Assembly (NCBI RefSeq): GCF_053078305.1
Contig: NZ_CP166879.1
Length of the DNA: 64,000 bases
Reading direction: 5' to 3' (one strand)
Shown here: positions 1 to 52,300 of the stretch, in pieces
Position numbering within the stretch: the stretch's first letter is position 1
Layout: every line of letters starts with the position of its first letter
Notes under the pieces: generated by a model
The model's database searches: none
What the model saw: only the letters and a program-made list of their open reading frames with translations
What the model was told of the DNA's origin: nothing
Position numbers and translations under genes: made by a program

Positions 1-1404
1 GTGTCACTTTCGCTTTGGCAGCAGTGTCTTGCCCGATTGCAGGATGAGTTACCAGCCACAGAATTCAGTATGTGGATACGCCCATTGCAGGCGGAACTGA
101 GCGATAACACGCTGGCCCTGTACGCGCCAAACCGTTTTGTCCTCGATTGGGTACGGGACAAGTACCTTAATAATATCAATGGACTGCTAACCAGTTTCTG
201 CGGAGCGGATGCCCCACAGCTGCGTTTTGAAGTCGGCACCAAACCGGTGACGCAAACGCCACAAGCGGCAGTGACGAGCAACGTCGCGGCCCCTGCACAG
301 GTGGCGCAAACGCAGCCGCAACGTGCTGCGCCTTCTACGCGCTCAGGTTGGGATAACGTCCCGGCCCCGGCAGAACCGACCTATCGTTCTAACGTAAACG
401 TCAAACACACGTTTGATAACTTCGTTGAAGGTAAATCTAACCAACTGGCGCGCGCGGCGGCTCGCCAGGTGGCAGATAACCCTGGCGGTGCCTATAACCC
501 GTTGTTCCTTTATGGCGGCACGGGTCTGGGTAAAACTCACCTGCTGCATGCGGTGGGTAACGGCATTATGGCGCGCAAGCCGAATGCCAAAGTGGTTTAT
601 ATGCACTCCGAGCGCTTTGTTCAGGACATGGTTAAAGCCCTGCAAAACAACGCGATCGAAGAGTTTAAACGCTACTACCGTTCCGTAGATGCACTGCTGA
701 TCGACGATATTCAGTTTTTTGCTAATAAAGAACGATCTCAGGAAGAGTTTTTCCACACCTTCAACGCCCTGCTGGAAGGTAATCAACAGATCATTCTCAC
801 CTCGGATCGCTATCCGAAAGAGATCAACGGCGTTGAGGATCGTTTGAAATCCCGCTTCGGCTGGGGGCTGACTGTGGCGATCGAACCGCCAGAGTTAGAA
901 ACCCGCGTGGCGATCCTGATGAAAAAGGCCGACGAAAATGACATTCGTTTGCCAGGCGAAGTGGCGTTCTTTATCGCCAAGCGTCTACGATCTAACGTAC
1001 GTGAGCTGGAAGGCGCGCTGAACCGCGTCATTGCCAACGCCAACTTTACCGGACGGGCGATCACTATCGACTTCGTGCGTGAGGCGCTGCGCGACTTGCT
1101 GGCATTGCAGGAAAAACTGGTCACCATCGACAATATTCAGAAGACGGTGGCGGAGTACTACAAGATCAAAGTCGCGGATCTCCTTTCCAAGCGTCGATCC
1201 CGCTCGGTGGCGCGTCCGCGCCAGATGGCGATGGCGCTGGCGAAAGAACTGACTAACCACAGTCTGCCGGAGATTGGCGATGCGTTTGGTGGCCGTGACC
1301 ACACGACGGTGCTTCATGCCTGCCGTAAGATCGAGCAGCTGCGTGAAGAGAGCCACGATATCAAAGAAGATTTTTCAAATTTAATCAGAACATTGTCATC
1401 GTAA
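1..1404 (+). CDS. dnaA: chromosomal replication initiator DnaA (GTG start)
   Basis: 467-aa ORF with Walker A motif [10 protein letters not shown] and C-terminal DNA-binding region; followed by dnaN-recF-gyrB. Confidence 0.98.
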
Positions 1405-1408
1405 ACCT

Positions 1409-2508
1409 ATGAAATTTACCGTAGAACGTGAGCATTTATTAAAACCGCTACAACAGGTGAGCGGGCCGTTAGGTGGTCGTCCTACGCTACCGATTCTCGG
1501 TAATCTGCTGTTACAGGTTGCTGACGGTACGTTGTCGCTGACCGGTACTGATCTCGAGATGGAAATGGTGGCACGCGTTGCGCTGGTTCAGCCACACGAG
1601 CCAGGGGCGACGACCGTTCCGGCGCGCAAATTCTTTGATATCTGCCGTGGTCTGCCTGAAGGCGCGGAAATTGCCGTGCAGCTGGAAGGTGAGCGGATGC
1701 TGGTGCGCTCCGGGCGTAGCCGTTTTTCGCTGTCTACCCTGCCAGCGGCGGATTTCCCGAACCTCGATGACTGGCAGAGCGAAGTCGAATTTACCCTGCC
1801 GCAGGCGACGATGAAGCGTCTGATTGAAGCGACCCAGTTTTCGATGGCGCATCAGGACGTTCGCTATTACTTAAACGGTATGCTGTTTGAAACCGAAGGT
1901 GAAGAACTGCGCACCGTGGCGACCGACGGCCACCGTCTGGCGGTCTGTTCAATGCCAATTGGTCAATCTTTGCCAAGCCATTCGGTGATCGTGCCGCGTA
2001 AAGGCGTGATTGAACTGATGCGTATGCTCGACGGCGGCGATAATCCGCTGCGTGTGCAGATTGGCAGCAACAATATTCGCGCCCACGTTGGCGACTTTAT
2101 CTTCACCTCTAAACTGGTGGATGGTCGCTTCCCGGATTACCGCCGCGTTCTGCCGAAGAATCCGGACAAACATCTGGAAGCAGGCTGCGATCTCCTCAAG
2201 CAGGCGTTTGCTCGCGCGGCAATTCTCTCTAACGAGAAATTCCGCGGTGTGCGCCTGTATGTCAGCGAAAACCAGCTGAAAATCACCGCCAACAACCCGG
2301 AACAGGAAGAAGCGGAAGAGATCCTCGACGTTACCTATAGCGGTGCGGAGATGGAAATCGGCTTCAACGTCAGCTATGTGCTGGATGTTCTGAACGCGCT
2401 GAAATGCGAAAACGTCCGCATGATGCTGACCGATTCGGTTTCCAGCGTGCAGATTGAAGATGCCGCATCACAGTCGGCTGCCTATGTTGTCATGCCAATG
2501 AGACTGTA

Positions 2509-2509
<1 letters not shown>
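1409..2509 (+). CDS. dnaN: DNA polymerase III beta sliding clamp
   Basis: 366-aa ORF starting [21 protein letters not shown]; stop overlaps recF start. Confidence 0.98.
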
Positions 2510-6025
<3,516 letters not shown>

Positions 6026-40921: not shown

Positions 40922-40968
40922 AACCGCTTCGTCTTATCAGCCAACAGACCGTGCCTGACCTGTCGAGT

Positions 40969-40994
40969 GGATAAGGCGTTCACGCCGCGTCCGG
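40969..40994. repeat. REP-like palindromic element
   Basis: ggataaggcgttcacgccgcgtccgg, same family as the copies after gyrB. Confidence 0.55.
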
Positions 40995-41035
40995 TATCGG
41001 AACTGACAGTAGGTGACGCATTATCTACGTTCTAT

Positions 41036-41359
41036 TTACAGCAGCACATCCAGCCCGTGTTTTTGCACAATGCTGAGCAGTTTTAATGAAATGCCATTGG
41101 GGCGTTTAGCGCCACTTTCCCATTTTTGTACAGTTGAAACGCTGGTATTGAGATAGTGAGCGAAGACGGGCTGACTCACTTTTAATTTTTCCCGCAGTGC
41201 TTTTATCTCAACAGGTTGTAAGTCTTGCACGCTGGTCAGGCAGGCTTTGTCAAAAGTACGCATTGTTTCGGCAGAAATAGCATCGACGCTGGACAATCCA
41301 GCCGCTGCGCTGTGAATAGCCTCAAATGCAGGACTTTTAAATTTAGTTTTTGCAGTCAT
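41036..41359 (-). CDS. HTH (XRE/NadS-like) antitoxin of a type II toxin-antitoxin pair
   Basis: 107 aa with HTH LREKLKVSQPVFAHYLNTSVSTVQKWESG; its start overlaps the upstream toxin gene by 17 nt. Confidence 0.72.
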   Translation of the reverse strand: MTAKTKFKSPAFEAIHSAAAGLSSVDAISAETMRTFDKACLTSVQDLQPVEIKALREKLKVSQPVFAHYLNTSVSTVQKWESGAKRPNGISLKLLSIVQKHGLDVLL

Positions 41360-41702
41360 AGCAGATCTCTGTCAGTTCTTTAGTGTTAATCATTGCTGTT
41401 AGCTGGGCTTTCGTCAGGAAGGCATAATGCTTTGCAAGTTCACGAAACCCAGCCAGTTCCTGACTATTGATGTTCGACATATCCTGTTTTGCATATAAAA
41501 ACGTGTAAAACCAATTGCTTCCCCCTTTTGCCAGAATAATTGCACGCTCACGATTTTGGTGAAGGCGCTTTTTAAAAACGCCACCACCAAGTGCATCAGC
41601 TTTACCTTGCTCCGTTTCTAAAATGGCCCGGCACAACTCTTCATCTGTTATTGCATGAGACCTGGCTTCCCTTGCAAACCATTTGGTTTTAAACACGCGC
41701 AT
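41343..41702 (-). CDS. RelE/ParE-superfamily toxin (HigB-like, toxin-first operon)
   Basis: 119-aa basic protein MRVFKTKWFAREA...; small size and overlap with the HTH partner fit a type II toxin-antitoxin module. Confidence 0.7.
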   Translation of the reverse strand: MRVFKTKWFAREARSHAITDEELCRAILETEQGKADALGGGVFKKRLHQNRERAIILAKGGSNWFYTFLYAKQDMSNINSQELAGFRELAKHYAFLTKAQLTAMINTKELTEICYDCKN

Positions 41703-41929
41703 ATCGTTGAGGTCCTGTTATTAAAGTATATCACCAAGTGCAATACTTTATCCCTTATTCCCAACCCAATCGCGAAAATGCATATCAGCTTGCCCTATGA
41801 TTTTTATTTCTTCGAGCAGCCTCGAACTTTTCCCACAACACCGTAAAAGTTGCAAAAACGTTAAATGTGTCACACATTTCAATGTTAAAGTGGTCGGCTT
41901 TTCCCCTGAAACATGCCACGGGTAACACC

Positions 41930-43316: not shown

Positions 43317-46300
43317 ATGGCAGGGAAAGCGCATGGGAATGGCGATCGTCGGGGCGATAACACCATATGTGGATTGGGGGATCGTTTACGTCGTCTGACC
43401 GCCGGTATTTGCCTGATAACACAAACTATATTCCCTGTTATGGCCGCTGCCCCTACGCATATTAACCATGCGCATTCGGATACTGCCACGTCCCTGATCC
43501 TGCCGAACGTTAAAACTATTCCATATACCCTGGGGGCATTGGAATCGCCATCAACGGTCGCGGCACGCTTTGGTATCACCGTTGATGAATTACGTCGCCT
43601 GAATCAGTTTCGTACCTTTGCGCGGGGCTTTGACAATGTGCGTCAGGGCGATGAAATAGATGTGCCCCTCATTAACAGTAATAGCCCTGAAGCGCGCAAC
43701 CTGAAAGCAATGCAGATGGAGCGCGACGGCAAAGATCCGCAAATGCAGGTCGCGGAAGTGGCGCAGCAAAGCGGAACACTTTTAGCTCGCGATATGGACA
43801 GCGAACAGGCGGCGAGTATGGCGCGTGGCTGGGTGGCTTCTTCTGCATCTGCGCAGGCAACGGACTGGCTCAGTCGTTGGGGAACTGCCCGGGTATCTCT
43901 TGGTGTGGATGAAGATTTCAGCCTTAAAAGCTCTTCATTCGAATTTCTCCATCCCTGGTACGAAACGCCGGATAACCTGGTCTTCAGCCAGCACACACTT
44001 CACCGTACGGATGATCGCACTCAAACCAACCACGGTATCGGCTGGCGTTATTTCACCCCGAGCTGGATGTCTGGCGTCAATATGTTTATCGATCATGACC
44101 TGACCCGCTATCACACCCGAACCGGGATAGGCGTTGAATACTGGCGCGATTACCTGAAACTGAGCGGCAACGGTTATCTGCGCCTGAGTAACTGGCGTAG
44201 TGCACCGGAACTCGACCATGACTATGAAGCACGTCCAGCGAACGGTTGGGATCTTCGCGCCGAAGGCTGGTTACCGGCCTGGCCGCAGCTGGGCGGCAAG
44301 CTGGTCTATGAACAATATTATGGCGATGAAGTGGCGCTGTTTGGTAAAGACGAGCGACAAAATGATCCTCACGCGATTACCGCAGGTTTGAGTTACACCC
44401 CCGTTCCCTTAATCTCCTTTAGTGCCGAGCAACGGCAGGGCAAACAGGGAGAAAACGACACCCGAATTGGTATGGAGTTGACGTTGCAACCTGGTCATTC
44501 ACTGCAAAAACAGCTCGATCCAGCTGAAGTTGCAGCTCGGCGCAGCCTTGTGGGTAGTCGCTATGACCTGGTCGATCGTAATAACAATATCGTCCTCGAA
44601 TATCGCAAGAAAGAGCTGGTGCGGCTGACGCTGACCGATCCGTTGAAAGGCAAGCCGGGTGAGGTTAAATCGCTGGTTTCTTCCTTACAAACCAAATATG
44701 CGCTGAAAGGTTATGACATTGAAGCCGCCTCCCTGCAATCAGCGGGCGGAAAAGTAGCTGTTTCCGGCAAGGATATTCAGGTCACTATTCCTCCCTACCG
44801 ATTCACGGCAATGCCTGAAACCGACAACACTTACCCGATAGCGGTTACAGCGGAAGATTCGAAAGGAAATTTCTCCCGGCGTGAAGAAAGTATGGTGGTC
44901 GTGGAAAAACCCACATTAAGCCTCGCCGATTCAACGCTTTCTGTCGATCTGCAAATCCTGCTTGCTGATGGAAAATCAACCTCAATGCTGACCTATACCG
45001 CGCGAGATTCCAGCGGCAAGCCAATCCCAGGTATGACGTTAAAAACACAGGTGAAAGGTTTGCAGGATTTCGCCTTAAGCGAATGGAAAGACAACGGTAA
45101 CGGAACCTATACCCAAATAGTTACCGCCGGGAAGACGTCTGGCGCGTTATCGCTGATGCCGCAATTTAACGGCGACGATATCGCTAAGACGCCAGCGCTG
45201 ATTGCTATCGTGGCGAATACGGCATCCCGCGCTGACTCCACGATTGAGACAGACCAGGATAATTACGTCGCGGGTAAGCCGATAGTCGTTAAAGTGACCC
45301 TGAGAGATGATAACGGCAACGGGGTTACCGGACGAAAAGAACTTCTCAAACAAACCGTTAAAGTAGACAACACGAAGGCTGATGCCGTTAGTGCCTGGAC
45401 GGAAGAAAGTGAGGGAATTTACAAAGCAAGCTATACGGCCCATCTCATTGGCGACAAATTAACGGCCCAGCTGACGATGCCCGGCTGGCAAACCAAACAT
45501 TCGGATGCGTTCAGTATTGCGGGTGATAAAGATACCGCCAAAATCGCTGCGATGCAGATCACCGCGAATAACGCAGTTGCCAGACGCGATCACAATACCG
45601 TCGCTGTGACGGTCAGGGATGTGCATCAAAATTTACTGCAGGGACAAAATGTTACCTTCACGGTCGTGAATGGTGCGGCGGTTTTTGCCGATCCGAATGG
45701 CGGTATTGTGACGACAGATAAAGACGGGATAGCCAGCGTTAACCTTGCCAGTGACCAGGCGGTAAACAGTCTTATCAAGGCCGAGATCAATGGCAGTAGT
45801 CAGTCTGTGGAAGTGAGCTTTATCACTGGCGATATCTCGCAGCTGACCTCCACCATCAAGACGGACGATGTGTCATACACTGCGGGTGGCAAGATAAAAG
45901 TGTCCGTCACCCTTATGGATGAGCAGAAAAACCTGGTGAAAGGGATGGCTTCGCTGCTGGCGGGTAGCGGTGTGGTCGAGGTGAGCGGTACAGATAAAAA
46001 TGAAACGGGTAACTGGAGCGAAGAGTCTGACGGCGTTTACACCACCACCCGAACCGCGAAGATTGCTGGCGATCGCCATTACGCCACGCTGAAACTATCG
46101 ACATGGAGTAGCGCGCAGCAATCCGATGCGTATGCCATCCGCGAAAGCGGAGCTGTGCTGGCTTATTCCTCCATCGTTACCGACAAAACGACCTACACCG
46201 CGGGCGGCGTGATAAAAGTTACGGTAACACTCAAGGATAGCTATGAAAACCTGGTCGGGGGGCAACGAGACGCTATCAACCTGGCTATCCAGCTGCCAAA

Positions 46301-49300
46301 TACAAAAGCGGAAAGCATCGCCTGGAATGAAGATCAAAAAGGAATTTATACCGCAACGTATACCGCCTTACTCCCTGGCACCGGTTTAAAAGCACAGCTA
46401 CAGATGTCCGACTGGGCGAGCGCTCTGACTTCAAATGATTACAGTATTAGTGGCGATGCCGCCAGCGCACAAATTGTCGCGATGCAAGTGACAACGGGTA
46501 ACCCGGATGTGCTGGCGAATGGCAGCGATCGACATACGGTGAATGTCCGGGTGGAAGATCAGTTTGGCAATGTGCTGCCGGAGCAGACCGTCACCTTTAC
46601 GGTGACGAAGGGGGCGGCTGTATTTGCCAATGCAGGGCAGAGCGCAGATATCAGGACGGATGCGCATGGTATGGCAGAGGTTGATCTGAGCAGTACCGTA
46701 GCGGATGCCAGCACTGTTGAGGCTAAGGTCAATCAAAGCAGCGATAGTAAAACGGTGAACTTTGTTGCTGATGTCAGCACGGCGCAGATCGCTGATCTGG
46801 TGGTCATTAAGGATGGCTCAGTGGCAGACGGTTCGACGGCGAACACGCTGCGGGTGAGGGTGACGGATGCGTTCGGTAATGCGCTGGACGGGCAGACGGT
46901 CAGCGTGTTGGCGGACAACAGCGCAACGGTCGCTCCGACGGTTATCACCGAGCCGGACGGGACGGTGGAGATCTCTGTTACCAGCCAGACGGCGGGAGTC
47001 AGTGCGGTCACCGCCAGTATCAACAACAGCAGCCTGAGCCGGAACGTGACGTTTGTTGCCGATGTCAGGACGGCGAAGATCGCTGATCTGGTGGTGATGC
47101 AGGACGGCTCAGTGGCAGATGGCACGACGGCGAACACGCTGCGGGCGAGGGTGACCGATGCGTTCGGCAATGCGCTTGCCGGGCAGACGGTCAGCGTGAC
47201 TGCAGGCAACAGCGCAACGGTCGCTTCGACAGTGACCACAAAGCCGGACGGCACGGTGGAGATCAGTGTCACCAGCCAGACGGCGGGAGTCAGTACTGTC
47301 ACCGCCAGCATCAACAGCAGCAGTCAGAGCCGGGATGTGACGTTTGTCGCTGATGTCAGGACGGCGAAGATCGCGGACCTGGTGGTCACCCGGGATAACT
47401 CAGTGGCAGACGCTTCGACGGCGAATACGCTGCAGGTGAAGGTCACCGATGCTAACGGTAATACGCTTGCCGGGCAGACGGTCAGCGTGACTGCAGGCAA
47501 CAGCGCAACGGTCGCTTCGACGGTGACCACAAAGCCGGACGGGACGGTGGAGATCAGTGTCACCAGTCAGACGGCGGGGAGCAGTACTGTCACTGCCAGC
47601 ATCAACAGCAGCAGCCTGAGCCGGAACGTGACGTTTATTGCGGATGTCAGGACGGCGCAGATCGCGGATCTGGTGGTCATTAAGGATGGTTCAGAGGCGG
47701 ACGGTGCGACGGCGAACACGCTGCGGGCGAGGGTGACCGATGCGTTCGGGAATGCGCTTGCCGGGCAGACGGTCAGCGTGTTGGCGGACAACGGCGCAAC
47801 GGTCGCTTCGACGGTCACCACAGGGCCGGACGGCACGGTGGAGATTTCTGTCATCAGCCAGACAGCCGGAATCAGTGCGGTCACTGCCAGCATCAACAGC
47901 AGCAGTCAGAGCCGGGACGTGACATTTATCGCCGATGTCAGGACGGCGCAGATCGCGGAGCTGGTGGTTATTAAGGATGGTTCAGAGGCAGACGGTGCGA
48001 CGGCGAACACGCTGCAGGTGAAGGTCACCGATGCTAACGGCAATGCGCTTGCCGGGCAGACGGTCAGCGTGTTGGCGGACAACGGCGCAACGACTGCCCC
48101 GACGGTTATCACCGAGCCGGACGGTAAGGTGGAGATCTCTGTTACCAGTCAGACGGCGGGAGTCAGTGCAGTCACTGCCAGCATCAACAACAGCACCCTG
48201 AGCCAGAACGTGATGTTTATCGCCGATATCAGGACGGCGCAGATCGCGGAGCTGGTGGTTATTAAGGATGGTTCAGAGGCAGACGGTGCGACGGCGAATA
48301 CGCTGCAGGTGAAGGTCACCGATGCTAACGGCAATGCGCTTGCCGGGCAGACGGTCAGCGTGTTGGCGGATAACGGCGCAACGGTCGCTTCGACGATGAC
48401 CACAAAGCCGGATGGCACGGTGGAAATCAGTGTCACCAGCCAGACGGCGGGCACCAGTTCGGTCACCGCCAGCATCAACAACAGCAGTCAGAGCCGGGAT
48501 GTGACATTTATCGCGGATGTCAGGACGGCGCAGATCGCGGACCTGGAGGTCATTAAGGATGGTTCAGAGGCGGACGGTTCGACGGCGAACGCGCTGCGTG
48601 CGAGGGTGACCGATGCGTTCGGTAATACGCTTGCCGGGCAGACGGTCAGCGTGTTGGCGGACAACGGCGCAACGGTCACTCCGACGGTCATCACAGGGCC
48701 GGACGGCACGGTGGAGATCTCTGTCACCAGTCAGACAGCCGGAATCAGTGCGGTCACTGCCAGCATCAACAGCAGCAGTCAGAGCCGGGACGTGACATTT
48801 ATCGCCGATGTCAGGACGGCGCAGATCGCGGATCTGGTGGTCATTAAGGATGGTTCAGAGGCGGACGGTTCGACGGCGAACACGCTGCGGGCGAGGGTAA
48901 CCGATGCGTTCGGTAATGCGCTTGCCGGGCAGACGGTGAGCGTGTTGGCGGATAACGGCGCAACGGTCGCTCCGACGGTCATCACAGGGCCGGACGGTAC
49001 GGTGGAGATCAGTCTCACCAGCCAGACGGCGGGCACCAGTGTGGTCACTGTCAGCATCAACAACAGTAGCCTGAGCCAGAGCGTGACATTTATTGCCGAT
49101 GTCAGGACGGCGAAGATCGCGGATCTGGTGGTCATTAAGGACGGCTCAGTGGCAGATGGCGCGACGGCGAACACGCTGCGGGTGAGGGTCACCGATGCGT
49201 TCGGTAATACGCTTGCCGGGCAGACGGTCAGCGTGACGGCAGGCAACAGTGCAATGGTCGCTTCGACTGTCATCACAGGGCCGGACGGCACGGTGGAGAT

Positions 49301-52300
49301 CTCAGTCACCAGCCAGACCGCCGGAACCAGTACAGTCACCGCCAGCATCAACAACAGCAGCCAGAGCCGAAACGTGACGTTTACTGCCGATGTCAGGACG
49401 GCGCAGATCGCGGAGCTGGAAGTGACACAGGATAACGCAGTAGCAGACGGCGCAATGGCGAATATGCTGCGGGCGAGGGTGACCGATGCGTTCGGTAATA
49501 CGCTTGCCGGGCAGACGGTCAGCGTGACGGCAGGCAACGGCGCAACGGTCACTCCGACGGTGACCACGCAGCCGGACGGCACGGTGGAGATCTCTGTCAC
49601 CAGTCAGACAGCCGGAATCAGTGCGGTCACTGCCAGCATCAACAGCAGCAGTCAGAGCCAGAGCGTGACGTTTGTCGCCGATATCAGGACGGCGCAGATC
49701 GCGGATCTGGTGGTCATTAAGGATGGTTCAGAGGCGGACGGTTCGACGGCGAACACGCTGCGGGTGAGGGTGACGGATGCGTTCGGTAATGCGCTGGACG
49801 GGCAGACGGTCAGCGTGTTGGCAGGCAACGGCGCAACGGTGTCTCCGACGGTCATCACAGGCCCGGACGGCACGGTGGAGATCTCTGTCACCAGCCAGAC
49901 GGCGGGGATCAGTGCAGTCACTGCAACCATCAACAGCAGCAGCCAGAGCCGGAACGTGACGTTTATCGCCGATGTCAGGACGGCGCAGATCACGGTGCTG
50001 GAAGTGACGCAGGATAACGCAGTAGCAGACGGCGCAATGGCGAATACGTTGCGGGTGAGGGTGACCGATGCGTTCGGCAATGCGCTTGCCGGGCAGACGG
50101 TCAGCGTGTTGACGGACAACGGCGCAACGACTGCCCCGACGGTGATCACAGAGCCGGACGGCACGGTGGAAATCAGTGTCACCAGCCAGACGGCGGGGAT
50201 CAGTACTGTCACTGCTAGCATCAACAACAGCAGCCTGAGCCAGAGCGTGATGTTTATCGCCGATATCAGGACGGCGCAGATCGCGGATCTGGTGGTCATT
50301 AAGGACGGCTCAGAGGCGGACGGGGCGACGGCGAACACGCTGCGGGCGAGGGTGACCGATGCGTTCGGTAATACGCTTGCCGGACAGACGGTCAGCGTGT
50401 TGGCGGACAACGGTGCAACAGTTGCCCCGACGGTGATCACAGAGCCGGACGGCACGGTGGCGATCTCTGTCACCAGCCAGACTGCCGGAATCAGTGCGGT
50501 CACCGCCAGCATCAACAGCAGCAACGCGAGCAGGAACGTGATGTTTATCGCCGATATCAGGACGGCGCAGATCGCGGATCTGGGGGTTATTAAGGACGGC
50601 TCAGTGGCAGACGGTTCGACGGCGAACACGCTGCGGGCGAGGGTCACCGATGCGTTCGGGAATGCGCTTGCCGGGCAGACGGTCAGCGTGTTGGCGGACA
50701 ACAGCGCAACGGTTGCCCCGACGGTGATTACAGAGCCGGACGGTATGGTGGAGATCCCTGTCACCAGCCAGACGGCAGGAATCAGTGTGGTCACCGCCAG
50801 CATCAACAGCAGCAGTCAAAGCCGGGATGTGACGTTTATCGCCGATATCAGGACGGCGCAGATCGCGGACCTGGTGGTCATTAAGGACGGCTCAGTGGCT
50901 GACGGCGCAATGGCGAATATGCTGCGGGCAAGGGTGACCGATGCGTTCGGTAATGCGCTGAATGGACAGACGGTCAGCGTGACGGCAGGCAACGGCGCAA
51001 CGGTCACTCCGACGGTCACCACGCAGCCGGACGGCACGGTGGAGATCCCTGTCACCAGCCAGACGGCAGGCACCACTGCGGTCACTGCCAACATTAACAG
51101 CAGCAGCCAGAGCCGGAACGTCACGTTTATTGCGGATGTCAGGACGGCGAAGATCGCTGATCTGGTAGTCACCCGGGATAACTCAGTGGCAGACGGTGCA
51201 ATGGCGAATACGCTGCAAGTGAAGGTCACCGATGCATTCGGGAATGCGCTGAATGGGCAGACGGTCAGCGTATCGACAGACAACAGCGCAATGGTCACTC
51301 CGACGGTGACCACGCAGCCGGATGGCACGGTGGAGATCAGTGTCACCAGTCAGACGGCGGGGATCAGTACAGTCACTGCCAGCATCAACAGCAGCAGCCA
51401 GAGCCGGGATGTGACGTTTATCGCCGATGTCAGAACGGCGCAGATCGCGAGTCTGGAGGTGACGCAGGATAACGCCGTGGCTGACGGCGCAATGGCGGAT
51501 ATGCTGCGGGCGAGGGTCACCGATGCGTTCGGCAATGCGCTTGGCGGACAGACGGTCAGCGTGACGGCAGGCAACGGCGCAACGGTTGCCCCGACGGTGA
51601 TCACAGAGCCGGACGGCACGGCGGAGATCAGTGTCACCAGCCAGACGGCGGGAGTCAGTGCAGTCACCGCCAGCATCAACAGCAGCAGCCAGAGCCGGGA
51701 TGTGACGTTTATCGCCGATGTCAGGACGGCGAAGATCGCGGATCTGGTGGTCATTAAGGACGGCTCAGTGGCAGACGGCGCAATGGCGAACACGCTGCAG
51801 GTGAAGGTCACCGATGCTAACGGCAATGTGCTTGCCGGGCAGACGGTCAGCGTGTTCGCAGGCAACGGTGCCACGACTGCTCCGACGGTCACCACGCAGC
51901 CGGACGGCACGGTGGAGATCTCTGTCACCAGCCAGACGGCAGGCACCAGTGCGGTCACTGCCAGCATTAACAGCAGCAGCCAGAGCCGGGATGTGACGTT
52001 TATCGCCGATGTCAGAACGGCGAAGATCGCTGATCTGGTGGTCATTAAGGACGGCTCAGTGGCTGACGGCGCAATGGCGAACATGCTGCAGGTAAAGGTT
52101 ACCGATGCTAACGGCAATGTGCTTGCCGGGCAGACGGTCAGCATGATGGCAGGCAACGGTGCAACGGTTGCCCCGACGGTGATTACAGAGCCGGACGGTA
52201 CGGTGGAGATCCCTGTCACCAGCCAGACGGCGGGAGCCAGTGCGGTCACCGCCAGTATCAACAGCAGCAACGCGAGCCGGAACGTGACGTTTGTTGCCGA

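Follow-up and report, generated by a model that had tools for sequence, protein, structure and literature searches.

A probable HigBA2-class toxin-antitoxin operon, long resident at the yicN-nepI junction of Escherichia coli and related Enterobacteriaceae

The gene pair and its upstream region

The stretch of E. coli DNA analysed here (64,000 nucleotides, hereafter the window) carries two overlapping genes between yicN and nepI, surrounded by a small set of recognizable or predicted features:

41343..41702, minus strand: toxin gene, 119 aa, ATG start, PF06296 ("RelE"/HigB2 family)
41036..41359, minus strand: antitoxin gene, 107 aa, ATG start, C-terminal XRE HTH
41343..41359, minus strand: overlap of the toxin 3' end and the antitoxin start, 17 nt (ORF scan and sequence)
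41722..41750, minus strand: predicted operator, a 13+13-nt inverted repeat with the core TTGCAC-N3-GTGATA at 41729-41743
41725..41733, minus strand: predicted extended -10, TGATATACT, within the right operator arm, read from the sequence
41713..41716, minus strand: Shine-Dalgarno AGGA, 10 nt upstream of the toxin ATG
40997..41835, no strand: presence/absence segment of 839 bp comprising the toxin-antitoxin operon, its promoter and short flanks (blast breakpoints against MG1655)
40930..40996, no strand: REP-like palindromic element, an inverted repeat between the yicN stop and the antitoxin stop

A preliminary description of this region had proposed a basic 119-aa RelE/ParE-like ORF followed by a 107-aa HTH ORF with a 17-nt overlap, which the ORF scan, the sequence and Pfam confirm (pI 9.2 for the toxin and 9.6 for the antitoxin, i.e., both basic). 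Its reading of the two genes as a type II toxin-antitoxin pair, the toxin belonging to the RelE superfamily and the antitoxin being an HTH protein, is likewise borne out by HMM profiles: PF06296 spans the toxin at full length (profile positions 1-120 of 120, E = 8.8e-42) and is its sole Pfam match, at 142.6 bits (cut-off 27), and HTH_3 matches the antitoxin (E = 6.7e-8) at 32.9 bits (cut-off 23), scores which exclude chance ORFs for both genes. The toxin ORF lies 5' of the antitoxin ORF on the same strand, and this toxin-first order is kept in all orthologs. The suggested likeness to HigBA-type modules thus stands for gene order, but the class is HigBA2/PF06296 and not that of Rts1 HigB. The 17-nt overlap, which suggests a translational coupling of the antitoxin to the toxin, is identical in all orthologous loci examined. 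Two relatives back the ATG start of the toxin, codon 3 being ATC or ATT in Salmonella and Klebsiella and so unable to initiate.

Overall, the pair is a real, ordinary and already annotated toxin-antitoxin module, labeled as such by RefSeq in ~1,700 complete E. coli genomes, and the window copy is fully intact. Literature searches by yicN/nepI, RefSeq protein accession and Pfam, DUF or COG names turned up no work on the locus of E. coli itself. Among defence-system models (PADLOC), the toxin had no match and the antitoxin generic HTH matches only (E ≥ 6e-6). The pair had also been placed two genes from an adhesin/translocon island; a single gene (nepI) in fact separates it from the 3807-aa adhesin gene starting at 43317, and we saw no tie to this adhesin/T3SS-translocon island, O157:H7 carrying the pair without it.

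Upstream of the toxin gene, the core palindrome (family consensus TAGCAC-N3-GTGCTA) is kept in Citrobacter, Salmonella, Klebsiella, Dickeya, Yersinia and Kluyvera amid otherwise diverging intergenic sequence, and the putative operator is identical in the window and in 12 of 15 sampled E. coli carriers (all those with the upstream region recovered). At the -10 position, all orthologs keep TATACT or TATA(T/G)T, and the Shine-Dalgarno region reads ACAGGA in five of six genera and CAGGA in Dickeya. A simple sigma-70 scan upstream of the toxin gave no -35/-10 pair, so that the promoter stands as a predicted one. The conserved palindrome overlapping the extended -10 is likely the operator of the pair; no second operator-like site was found near nepI, the only other match in the window being at chance level.

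Relatives of the toxin and the antitoxin

The AF2 model of the toxin (pLDDT 91.4, pTM 0.84) points to a RelE/BECR fold. Compared with the PDB through Foldseek, its best 11 matches are all Vibrio cholerae HigB2 (VcHigB2; probability 1.00, target-normalised TM-score 0.49-0.63), with other HigB, RelE and YafQ toxins below. Although VcHigB2 is the best structural match, it is only ~20% identical to the toxin, and neither phmmer nor a profile of 35 sequences retrieved anything from the PDB at E ≤ 1. With direct sequence searches this weak, the link between the two toxins rests on their common Pfam family, the fold and a motif alignment. VcHigB2 itself (sequence verified against 5JA9) falls within PF06296 at 34.5 bits for a cut-off of 27, and hhalign pairs K44/R46/R53/Y70/K72 of the toxin with K49/R51/R64/Y82/K84 of VcHigB2 in a weak alignment (E = 1.2e-3, probability 19%). 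The roles of the catalytic residues of VcHigB2 were established by mutagenesis (PMC5416850). Across a 35-sequence family alignment, conservation is 90% or more at K44, R46, R53 and K72, position 70 is Y or F, and these five positions are the predicted catalytic residues of the toxin.

The V. cholerae HigB2/HigA2 pair (VCA0468/0469; PDB 5JA8, 5JAA, 8A0X) thus shares with the E. coli pair a PF06296 toxin, a toxin-first order and active-site residues that align one to one, and VcHigA2 joins an N-terminal neutralising segment to a C-terminal XRE HTH, the layout also predicted for the antitoxin. VcHigB2 differs by a beta2-beta3 loop longer by six residues and by the lack of a C-terminal helix-plus-strand extension (it covers profile positions 8-96 of 120), which in the E. 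coli toxin is built of two helices plus a strand and carries an invariant E112. The V. cholerae genes also lie in a superintegron, whereas the E. coli pair sits at a core-genome junction.

The closest tested pair is ToxP/AntitoxP of Coxiella burnetii QpH1 (CBUA0028/CBUA0027), also toxin-first, with the toxin 31% identical to ToxP over the full length, C-terminal extension included (E = 1e-18), and the antitoxin 55% identical to AntitoxP, again over the full length (E = 1e-36). For this pair, toxicity, neutralisation, translation inhibition and binding to its own promoter have been demonstrated (PMC10098735). ToxP/AntitoxP differ in being plasmid-borne with a role in plasmid maintenance, in a longer beta2-beta3 loop, and in a 30-aa N-terminal extension of ToxP as annotated.

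Closer to home, the Salmonella Typhimurium relBE3ST genes (STM3777/STM3778, i.e., SL3743/SL3744), which occupy 4000107-4000773 in SL1344, are very likely the direct nepI-adjacent ortholog, judging from length (the same 667-bp span), domain content (RelE-like and Xre-like) and a near-matching mass (11,733-11,766 Da computed for the Salmonella ortholog, 11,754 Da reported for relBE3ST). The nepI-adjacent Salmonella proteins are 70% (toxin) and 80% (antitoxin) identical to those of the window; the locus differs in that yicN is not adjacent, a PTS/aldolase cluster taking its place. The relBE3ST toxin inhibits growth on overexpression, the antitoxin was detected by proteomics, and no neutralisation by the cognate RelB3ST was seen in that study's assay (PMC4366850).

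More broadly, E. coli K-12 RelBE and Rts1 or E. coli HigBA have in common with the pair the RelE/ParE (BECR) fold and the paradigm of a ribosome-dependent mRNA interferase (PMC11980606), HigBA being also toxin-first. Their toxins fall in other Pfam families, however (PF05016 for K-12 RelE, PF05015 for Rts1 HigB and PF09907 for E. coli HigB/YgjN), and RelB, unlike the antitoxin here, is a ribbon-helix-helix protein whose gene lies upstream of that of its toxin. In Rts1 HigA, it is the globular domain that neutralises (PMC5416850). Structures of E. coli HigB are weak Foldseek matches to the toxin (TM-score 0.32), and membership in the PF09907 group of SehAB and E. coli HigBA was rejected, residues Y53, D61, H88 and others of SehA having no counterpart in the toxin, where position 53 is R. 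Salmonella SehAB was also discarded as a characterised ortholog, SehA being HigB/YgjN-like with different key residues.

The antitoxin is organized into a conserved N-terminal segment (~residues 1-45) and a C-terminal XRE HTH (~residues 46-102), the latter matching VcHigA2 (5JAA, E = 9e-10). The N-terminus is near-invariant across genera, aligns with AntitoxP from residue 5 and is presumed to neutralise the toxin; the AF2 model of the monomer is moderate (pLDDT 68) and too weak for structural claims. The HTH also resembles that of MqsA, YiaG and NadS regulators through sub-threshold NCBIfam and Pfam matches, and PF06296 toxins were described as paired with YiaG-like antitoxins by Gerdes (2025; PMC11980606). 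Membership in any of these families was rejected, since the scores fall below the cut-offs for MqsA (41 vs. 61.8 for TIGR03830, 26.2 vs. 30 for PF15731, with only the C-terminal HTH aligned), NadS (41.3 vs. a curated 60) and YiaG (29 vs. a curated 110). The MqsRA class was likewise set aside: the single cysteine of the antitoxin leaves no N-terminal CxxC zinc domain, and the toxin is not PF15723.

Distribution, conservation and the K-12 allele

Of 5426 complete E. coli genomes, 1716 carry the pair, in each case as a single chromosomal copy, and the remaining 68% lack it. The locus is thus strain-variable, as initially proposed, and the statement that K-12 has no genes at this junction proved right for MG1655, in which nothing is encoded between yicN and nepI. 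In K-12 and other "empty" genomes, a 41-bp filler stands in place of the 839 bp, K-12 retaining the nepI-proximal 92 bp, and among 40 empty genomes sampled, 38 have an empty allele of 1203 bp. This filler could not be read as a remnant of the toxin-antitoxin segment (score of 13 vs. 10.0 ± 1.4 for shuffles, maximum 15). The left breakpoint of the indel coincides with the end of the REP-like element, where Rfam gives a sub-threshold match to naRNA4 (REP-derived; 40965-41029, 33 bits, E = 7e-4). No other structured RNA was found in the region, a miRNA match on a toxin-internal hairpin being spurious.

Beyond E. coli, the pair adjoins nepI, and usually yicN as well, over the same 667-bp span in E. 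ruysiae, Citrobacter, Salmonella, Klebsiella, Kluyvera and [Enterobacter] lignolyticus. Altogether, seven genera of Enterobacteriaceae have it divergent to the nepI ortholog, with yicN, where present, next to it; Dickeya and Yersinia carry the same pair in unrelated contexts. At the nucleotide level, the pair is 76-80% identical to the E. coli copy, on a par with nepI (80%) and yicN (76.5%). Between genera, amino-acid identity reaches 80-85% for the antitoxin and 70-72% for the toxin, and the dN/dS ratio is 0.03-0.08 for both genes, these values being rough as dS is saturated. We detected neither mobility genes nor flanking direct repeats at the pair.

The earlier notion of a pair "inserted" between yicN and nepI is therefore not upheld: with the same site occupied in seven genera, a divergence matching that of the flanking genes and no mobility gene or direct repeats, it is the K-12 state that is derived, 839 bp having been replaced by 41 unrelated bp in an allele now predominant in E. 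coli. The survey of the junction across genomes shows the pair as an old resident of enteric genera, lost in K-12, as in roughly two thirds of E. coli.

Carriers within E. coli often have a damaged toxin gene. The ancestral start codon of the toxin is lost in 29% of them, with ATG changed to ATA in 491 of about 1716 carriers and ATG kept in 1059, and further lesions include W64* in strain TR01 and W8* with a frameshift in strains RS571 and AJ5. The antitoxin is intact in all 15 sampled E. coli carriers, and in [Enterobacter] lignolyticus as well, where the toxin is frameshifted. Lesions falling in the toxin and not in the antitoxin are the pattern expected if an unopposed toxin is harmful, and this frequent attenuation means that toxin function is dispensable. 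A "77%-identity allele" of strain HS-02 was left out; its sequence abounds in homopolymer-like runs, has 33 gaps in 1 kb and is most likely poorly assembled.

Proposed mechanism and alternative readings

Building on the gene structure, family membership, predicted fold, residue and operator conservation, synteny and population frequencies observed here, we consider the pair, with a probability of about 0.8, to be a chromosomal and autoregulated type II toxin-antitoxin operon of the HigBA2 class (PF06296 toxin and HigA2-like XRE antitoxin), an old resident of the nepI-yicN junction that was vertically inherited in Enterobacteriaceae and lost by one replacement event. Toxicity, neutralisation, DNA binding and RNA cleavage would be expected of the E. 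coli pair by analogy with its homologs. In such a model, the extended -10 promoter would yield a bicistronic mRNA with a short leader and a start near 41718, from which the toxin would be translated first and the antitoxin by coupling through the overlap. The antitoxin would dimerise via its C-terminal HTH and bind the palindrome over the -10, repressing the operon, while its conserved N-terminal segment would wrap the toxin and keep it inactive. Depletion of the antitoxin (by proteolysis in relatives) may then free the toxin, which would enter the ribosomal A site and cleave mRNA under translation via K44/R46/R53/Y70/K72, bringing growth to a stop. A single replacement of 839 bp by 41 bp would have removed the pair and produced the allele that predominates in E. 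coli, K-12 included.

One could instead see in the pair an attenuated relic or domesticated regulator, causing no arrest at native levels, with the antitoxin kept as a transcription factor that acts on its own promoter alone or on nepI as well. The commonness of lesions confined to the toxin (from the ATA start codon to the frameshift of [Enterobacter] lignolyticus), the antitoxin intact in every sampled carrier and more conserved between genera than the toxin, and the divergent arrangement with nepI in seven genera are all in line with this idea. It is nonetheless unlikely, as the window toxin retains its ATG, a full ORF and all catalytic residues, the toxin dN/dS is well below 1 across genera, no operator-like site above chance lies near nepI, K-12 functions without the pair while keeping the nepI-proximal 92 bp, and the toxin of the probable Salmonella ortholog is toxic. 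It is tempting to speculate further that the pair was domesticated and fixed beside nepI, a purine-nucleoside exporter gene, before the split of Escherichia, Salmonella, Klebsiella and Citrobacter, with purifying selection acting via a host regulatory role of the antitoxin or of the toxin-antitoxin ratio (e.g., coupling nepI or purine efflux to translational stress), a scenario we hold to be quite improbable. If true, the recurrent toxin-only attenuation would represent the tuning of a circuit by selection and not a simple decay.

There is very little chance that the toxin acts otherwise than by RNA cleavage, e.g., by inhibiting a host protein. The HigB-like SehA of Salmonella, recently reported as an RNase III inhibitor, does exemplify a RelE-fold toxin without nuclease activity, and the C-terminal extension with its invariant E112 is missing from VcHigB2. 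SehA, however, is from another family, being 40% identical to E. coli HigB/YgjN, and is devoid of the canonical active-site residues, whereas all five HigB2/RelE-type residues are present and conserved in the E. coli toxin, and Coxiella ToxP, which has the same C-terminal extension, inhibits translation. Finally, a recent acquisition into an ancestrally empty junction, which the absence of the pair from most complete E. coli genomes, the occurrence of the family on plasmids of other taxa (183 plasmid records) and the unrelated contexts in Dickeya and Yersinia could evoke, is largely refuted by the identical position in seven genera with a divergence equal to that of the flanking core genes, by the lack of any integrase, transposase or target-site duplication, by an empty site made of unrelated filler and not of a clean junction, by the lack of any plasmid copy in the E. 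coli complete-genome collection (a 99%-identical "plasmid" record of 4.9 Mb being apparently a misfiled chromosome, and the nearest plasmid relative at most 58% identical), and by the sole match in a phage collection being a Salmonella draft contig.

As a toxin-antitoxin module, the pair adds little to a family already defined (PF06296/HigB2), with relatives tested in Vibrio, Coxiella and, very likely, Salmonella (relBE3). The locus does provide a clear case of a chromosomal toxin-antitoxin pair passed on by vertical descent at the same site in several genera, which counters the default view of recent mobile insertions. Since K-12 is derived at this junction, toxin-antitoxin inventories based on K-12, as well as "all-TA deletion" strains, leave out a module found in one in three E. 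coli, O157:H7 and numerous clinical isolates among them. The series of alleles that occurs in nature, from an intact ATG through an ATA start, nonsense and frameshift to full deletion, and with the antitoxin kept in sampled carriers, offers ready material for studies of how toxins are disarmed.

The toxin and its antitoxin

An ORF scan and the raw sequence place two ATG-initiated reading frames between yicN and nepI, with the coordinates and 17-nt overlap of the preliminary description and the larger ORF upstream:

41343..41702, minus strand, toxin gene (119 aa)
41036..41359, minus strand, antitoxin gene (107 aa)
41722-41750, 13+13-nt inverted repeat, predicted operator, 20 nt upstream of the toxin start codon
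41725..41733, predicted extended -10 element, TGATATACT, within the right arm of this inverted repeat

Both products are basic (computed pI 9.2 for the toxin, which had been described as such, and 9.6 for the antitoxin). RefSeq names them "type II toxin-antitoxin system RelE/ParE family toxin" and "helix-turn-helix domain-containing protein". In HMM searches the toxin aligns with Pfam PF06296 ("RelE") along the whole profile (positions 1-120 of 120, E=8.8e-42), with no NCBIfam model specific to it, and the antitoxin has an XRE HTH (HTH_3 above the Pfam cut-off). The closest solved relative of the antitoxin is HigA2 (E=9e-10, residues 46-102), and its residues 1-45 are nearly invariant across orthologs. 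Membership in MqsA, NadS or YiaG was rejected, every match falling under the curated thresholds; zinc-finger cysteines are absent from the sequence.

Plain sequence searches of solved structures with the toxin, as a single protein or as a 35-sequence profile, returned no match. Vibrio cholerae HigB2 (query identical to PDB 5JA9 chain C) is a marginal PF06296 member (34.5 bits, cut-off 27), and a weak profile-sequence alignment (E=1.2e-3) places toxin residues K44, R46, R53, Y70 and K72 opposite HigB2 active-site residues K49, R51, R64, Y82 and K84. Mutating R51, R64, Y82 or K84 lowers HigB2 activity 170- to 3000-fold (PMC5416850). From a diverse alignment, AlphaFold modelled the toxin with high confidence (pLDDT 91.4), and the best 11 Foldseek matches of this model in the PDB are all HigB2 chains (probability 1.00, target-normalised TM-score 0.49-0.63), ranked above other HigB, RelE and YafQ toxins. 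The toxin, like most of PF06296, continues at its C-terminus into two further helices and a strand, including an invariant glutamate (E112); HigB2 has no such extension.

Overall, we estimate a probability of roughly 80% that the window genes form a working toxin-antitoxin pair. As in HigBA2, the toxin would be a ribosome-dependent mRNA interferase, restrained by an HTH antitoxin that would also repress the operon; we hold this exact chemistry, ribosome-dependent mRNA cleavage, with somewhat less confidence. A defence or abortive-infection role, though not supported by the analysis, would be compatible with this model; PADLOC gave no match for the toxin.

Within the toxin gene, a minus-strand hairpin (41556-41590, codons 38-49, 17-nt arms, -19.6 kcal/mol) covers the active-site codons for LGGGVFKKRL. 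In other genera the orthologous sequences fold into just a less stable core of this stem, at -5 to -10 kcal/mol, which makes its extension an E. coli-specific feature; the single Rfam match here, to a miRNA, is spurious.

Occurrence and allelic state in E. coli

The module is strain-variable, as had been proposed: it occurs in 1,716 of 5,426 complete E. coli genomes, always chromosomally and once per genome, while the junction flanks are found in 5,403. The MG1655 annotation is empty between yicN and nepI, in line with the preliminary description, which had K-12 without genes there; 40997-41835 of the window (839 bp) is replaced cleanly by 41 bp, with no detectable derivation of this filler from the 839-bp segment. 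Among 60 evenly spaced E. coli genomes, the module was present in 19 and the site empty in 40 (38 with an identical 1203-bp span), and one gave a partial match. Both states are found on flank haplotypes ~97% and ~98.5% identical to the window. A REP-like palindromic element after yicN (40930-40996) stops exactly where the replacement begins on the left, a hint that the K-12 allele arose by REP-associated recombination. Rfam gave a sub-threshold match to naRNA4, a REP-derived RNA, at 40965-41029 (33 bits, E=7e-4).

Two records deserve comment. The junction of E. coli HS-02 (L003, 3871-4850) gave only 77% identity to the module when the collection was searched, and 80.6% on re-alignment over the whole junction; with 33 gaps and homopolymer-rich translations, it looks more like faulty local assembly than like a divergent allele. 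A plasmid-collection match (H51, NZ_CP141089.1; 99% identity) is a 4.9-Mb E. coli record, evidently a misfiled chromosome.

Ten carriers, sampled at even spacing, all had an intact antitoxin. One of them had a toxin with W8* and a frameshift, and three (O157:H7, O145 and one urinary isolate) had the ancestral toxin start changed from ATG to ATA; for these alleles PGAP takes codon 3, a GTG, as the start, at a distance of 16 nt from the Shine-Dalgarno. Exact 57-mer counts gave 1,059 genomes for the ATG version and 491 for ATA, and strain TR01 carries toxin W64*. In [Enterobacter] lignolyticus SCF1 (L031, 2659-3011), a toxin frameshift near the GGG motif leaves the antitoxin and operator-like sequence, an independent case of toxin-first decay in another genus. 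Lesions confined to the toxin indicate that it is dispensable, and one might regard the locus as an attenuated relic in which the antitoxin is the selected part; the same pattern is expected if free toxin is harmful. The window copy, identical to that of strain 88-3493, has kept the ATG start, both complete reading frames, every catalytic residue and the predicted operator, and we consider a relic improbable, if the most serious rival to a working pair. PGAP also annotates a frameshift in adeQ, the adjacent adenine permease gene, in O157:H7 Z866 (L021) and O145 RM9467-C1 (L027).

Ancestry and tested relatives

The pair, with unchanged protein sizes (119 and 107 aa) and 17-nt overlap, was found divergent to the nepI ortholog in six other taxa. 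It adjoins nepI and yicN in Escherichia ruysiae, Citrobacter koseri, Klebsiella oxytoca and [Enterobacter] lignolyticus (toxin frameshifted), nepI with one additional gene before yicN in Kluyvera, and nepI only in Salmonella. Nucleotide identity between E. coli and Citrobacter or Salmonella is flank-like (76-80% for the TA genes, 80% for nepI, 76.5% for yicN), both TA genes have a dN/dS of 0.03-0.08 (dS saturated), and no mobility gene or target duplication was seen at the pair. The junction survey thus contradicts the insertion proposed in the preliminary description; despite the empty K-12 site, a recent insertion is very hard to credit. Long vertical residence, followed by a single loss allele now dominant in E. 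coli, is the simplest reading. On a broader scale the PF06296-type family is mobile: Dickeya and Yersinia have the pair in different gene contexts, and 183 plasmid records carry the family (identity <=58%), mostly from rhizobia, Coxiella, Legionella and Pseudomonas.

ToxP/AntitoxP of the Coxiella plasmid QpH1, the closest pair tested experimentally, share 31% (toxin) and 55% (antitoxin) full-length identity with the window pair. ToxP is toxic and AntitoxP neutralises it by direct binding; translation is blocked and the pair's own promoter bound (PMC10098735). In an S. Typhimurium inventory, relBE3ST (SL3743/SL3744 = STM3777/STM3778) is a RelE-like plus Xre-like module of 667 bp (PMC4366850), exactly the length of the window pair, and its published antitoxin mass (11,754 Da) compares with 11,733-11,766 Da computed for Salmonella orthologs. 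From domains, span and mass, relBE3ST is probably the nepI-adjacent Salmonella ortholog. Its toxin was growth-inhibitory and its antitoxin gave no rescue in that 2015 study (PMC4366850). SehAB, initially suspected as the Salmonella ortholog, belongs to a different family, and a SehA-like toxin that is not a nuclease is scarcely plausible beside the HigB2-type active-site residues, weak as their alignment is.

The pair is a known kind of element, its toxin family having been reviewed in 2025 (PMC11980606); no publication on this particular locus in E. coli came up in a literature search. Only two points are mildly new: that the pair is ancestral and syntenic, and how toxin disarmament is distributed in the population.

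Upstream regions and the neighbouring island

Upstream regions were aligned for E. coli, Citrobacter, Salmonella, Klebsiella, Dickeya, Yersinia and Kluyvera. A TAGCAC-N3-GTGCTA core and a TATA(C/T/G)T hexamer are conserved, as is the Shine-Dalgarno core CAGGA (ACAGGA in most), and the remaining intergenic sequence has diverged. All three are kept even in Dickeya and Yersinia, despite other neighbour genes. A palindrome conserved over a promoter is what one would expect of an antitoxin operator, here predicted from sequence. A generic promoter scan of the TA upstream region found no promoter.

Upstream of nepI (41836-41929), the 92 nepI-proximal bp are kept in K-12. A perfect 8+8 palindrome, AAATGTGT-n-ACACATTT, lies at 41863-41879 beside a AACGTTTTTGCAAC motif conserved in Citrobacter and partly in Salmonella. 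Either might bind a regulator of nepI; a CRP- or PurR-like one would be a guess on our part.

An island between nepI and nlpA (43317-61029) is missing from this position in K-12 and O157:H7 TR01. It encodes:

an inverse autotransporter of 3807 aa (IAT_beta plus 22 Big_1/Invasin_D3 repeats)
a ToxR-type/TPR regulator of 565 aa
a T3SS tip-complex protein (PF06511)
a SipB-like fragment

The pair and the adhesin gene (3807 aa) have one gene between them, nepI, not two as first described. The presence of the island is independent of that of the TA pair, and the island is similar to the ETT2-associated eilA/eip/air locus of enteroaggregative E. coli.
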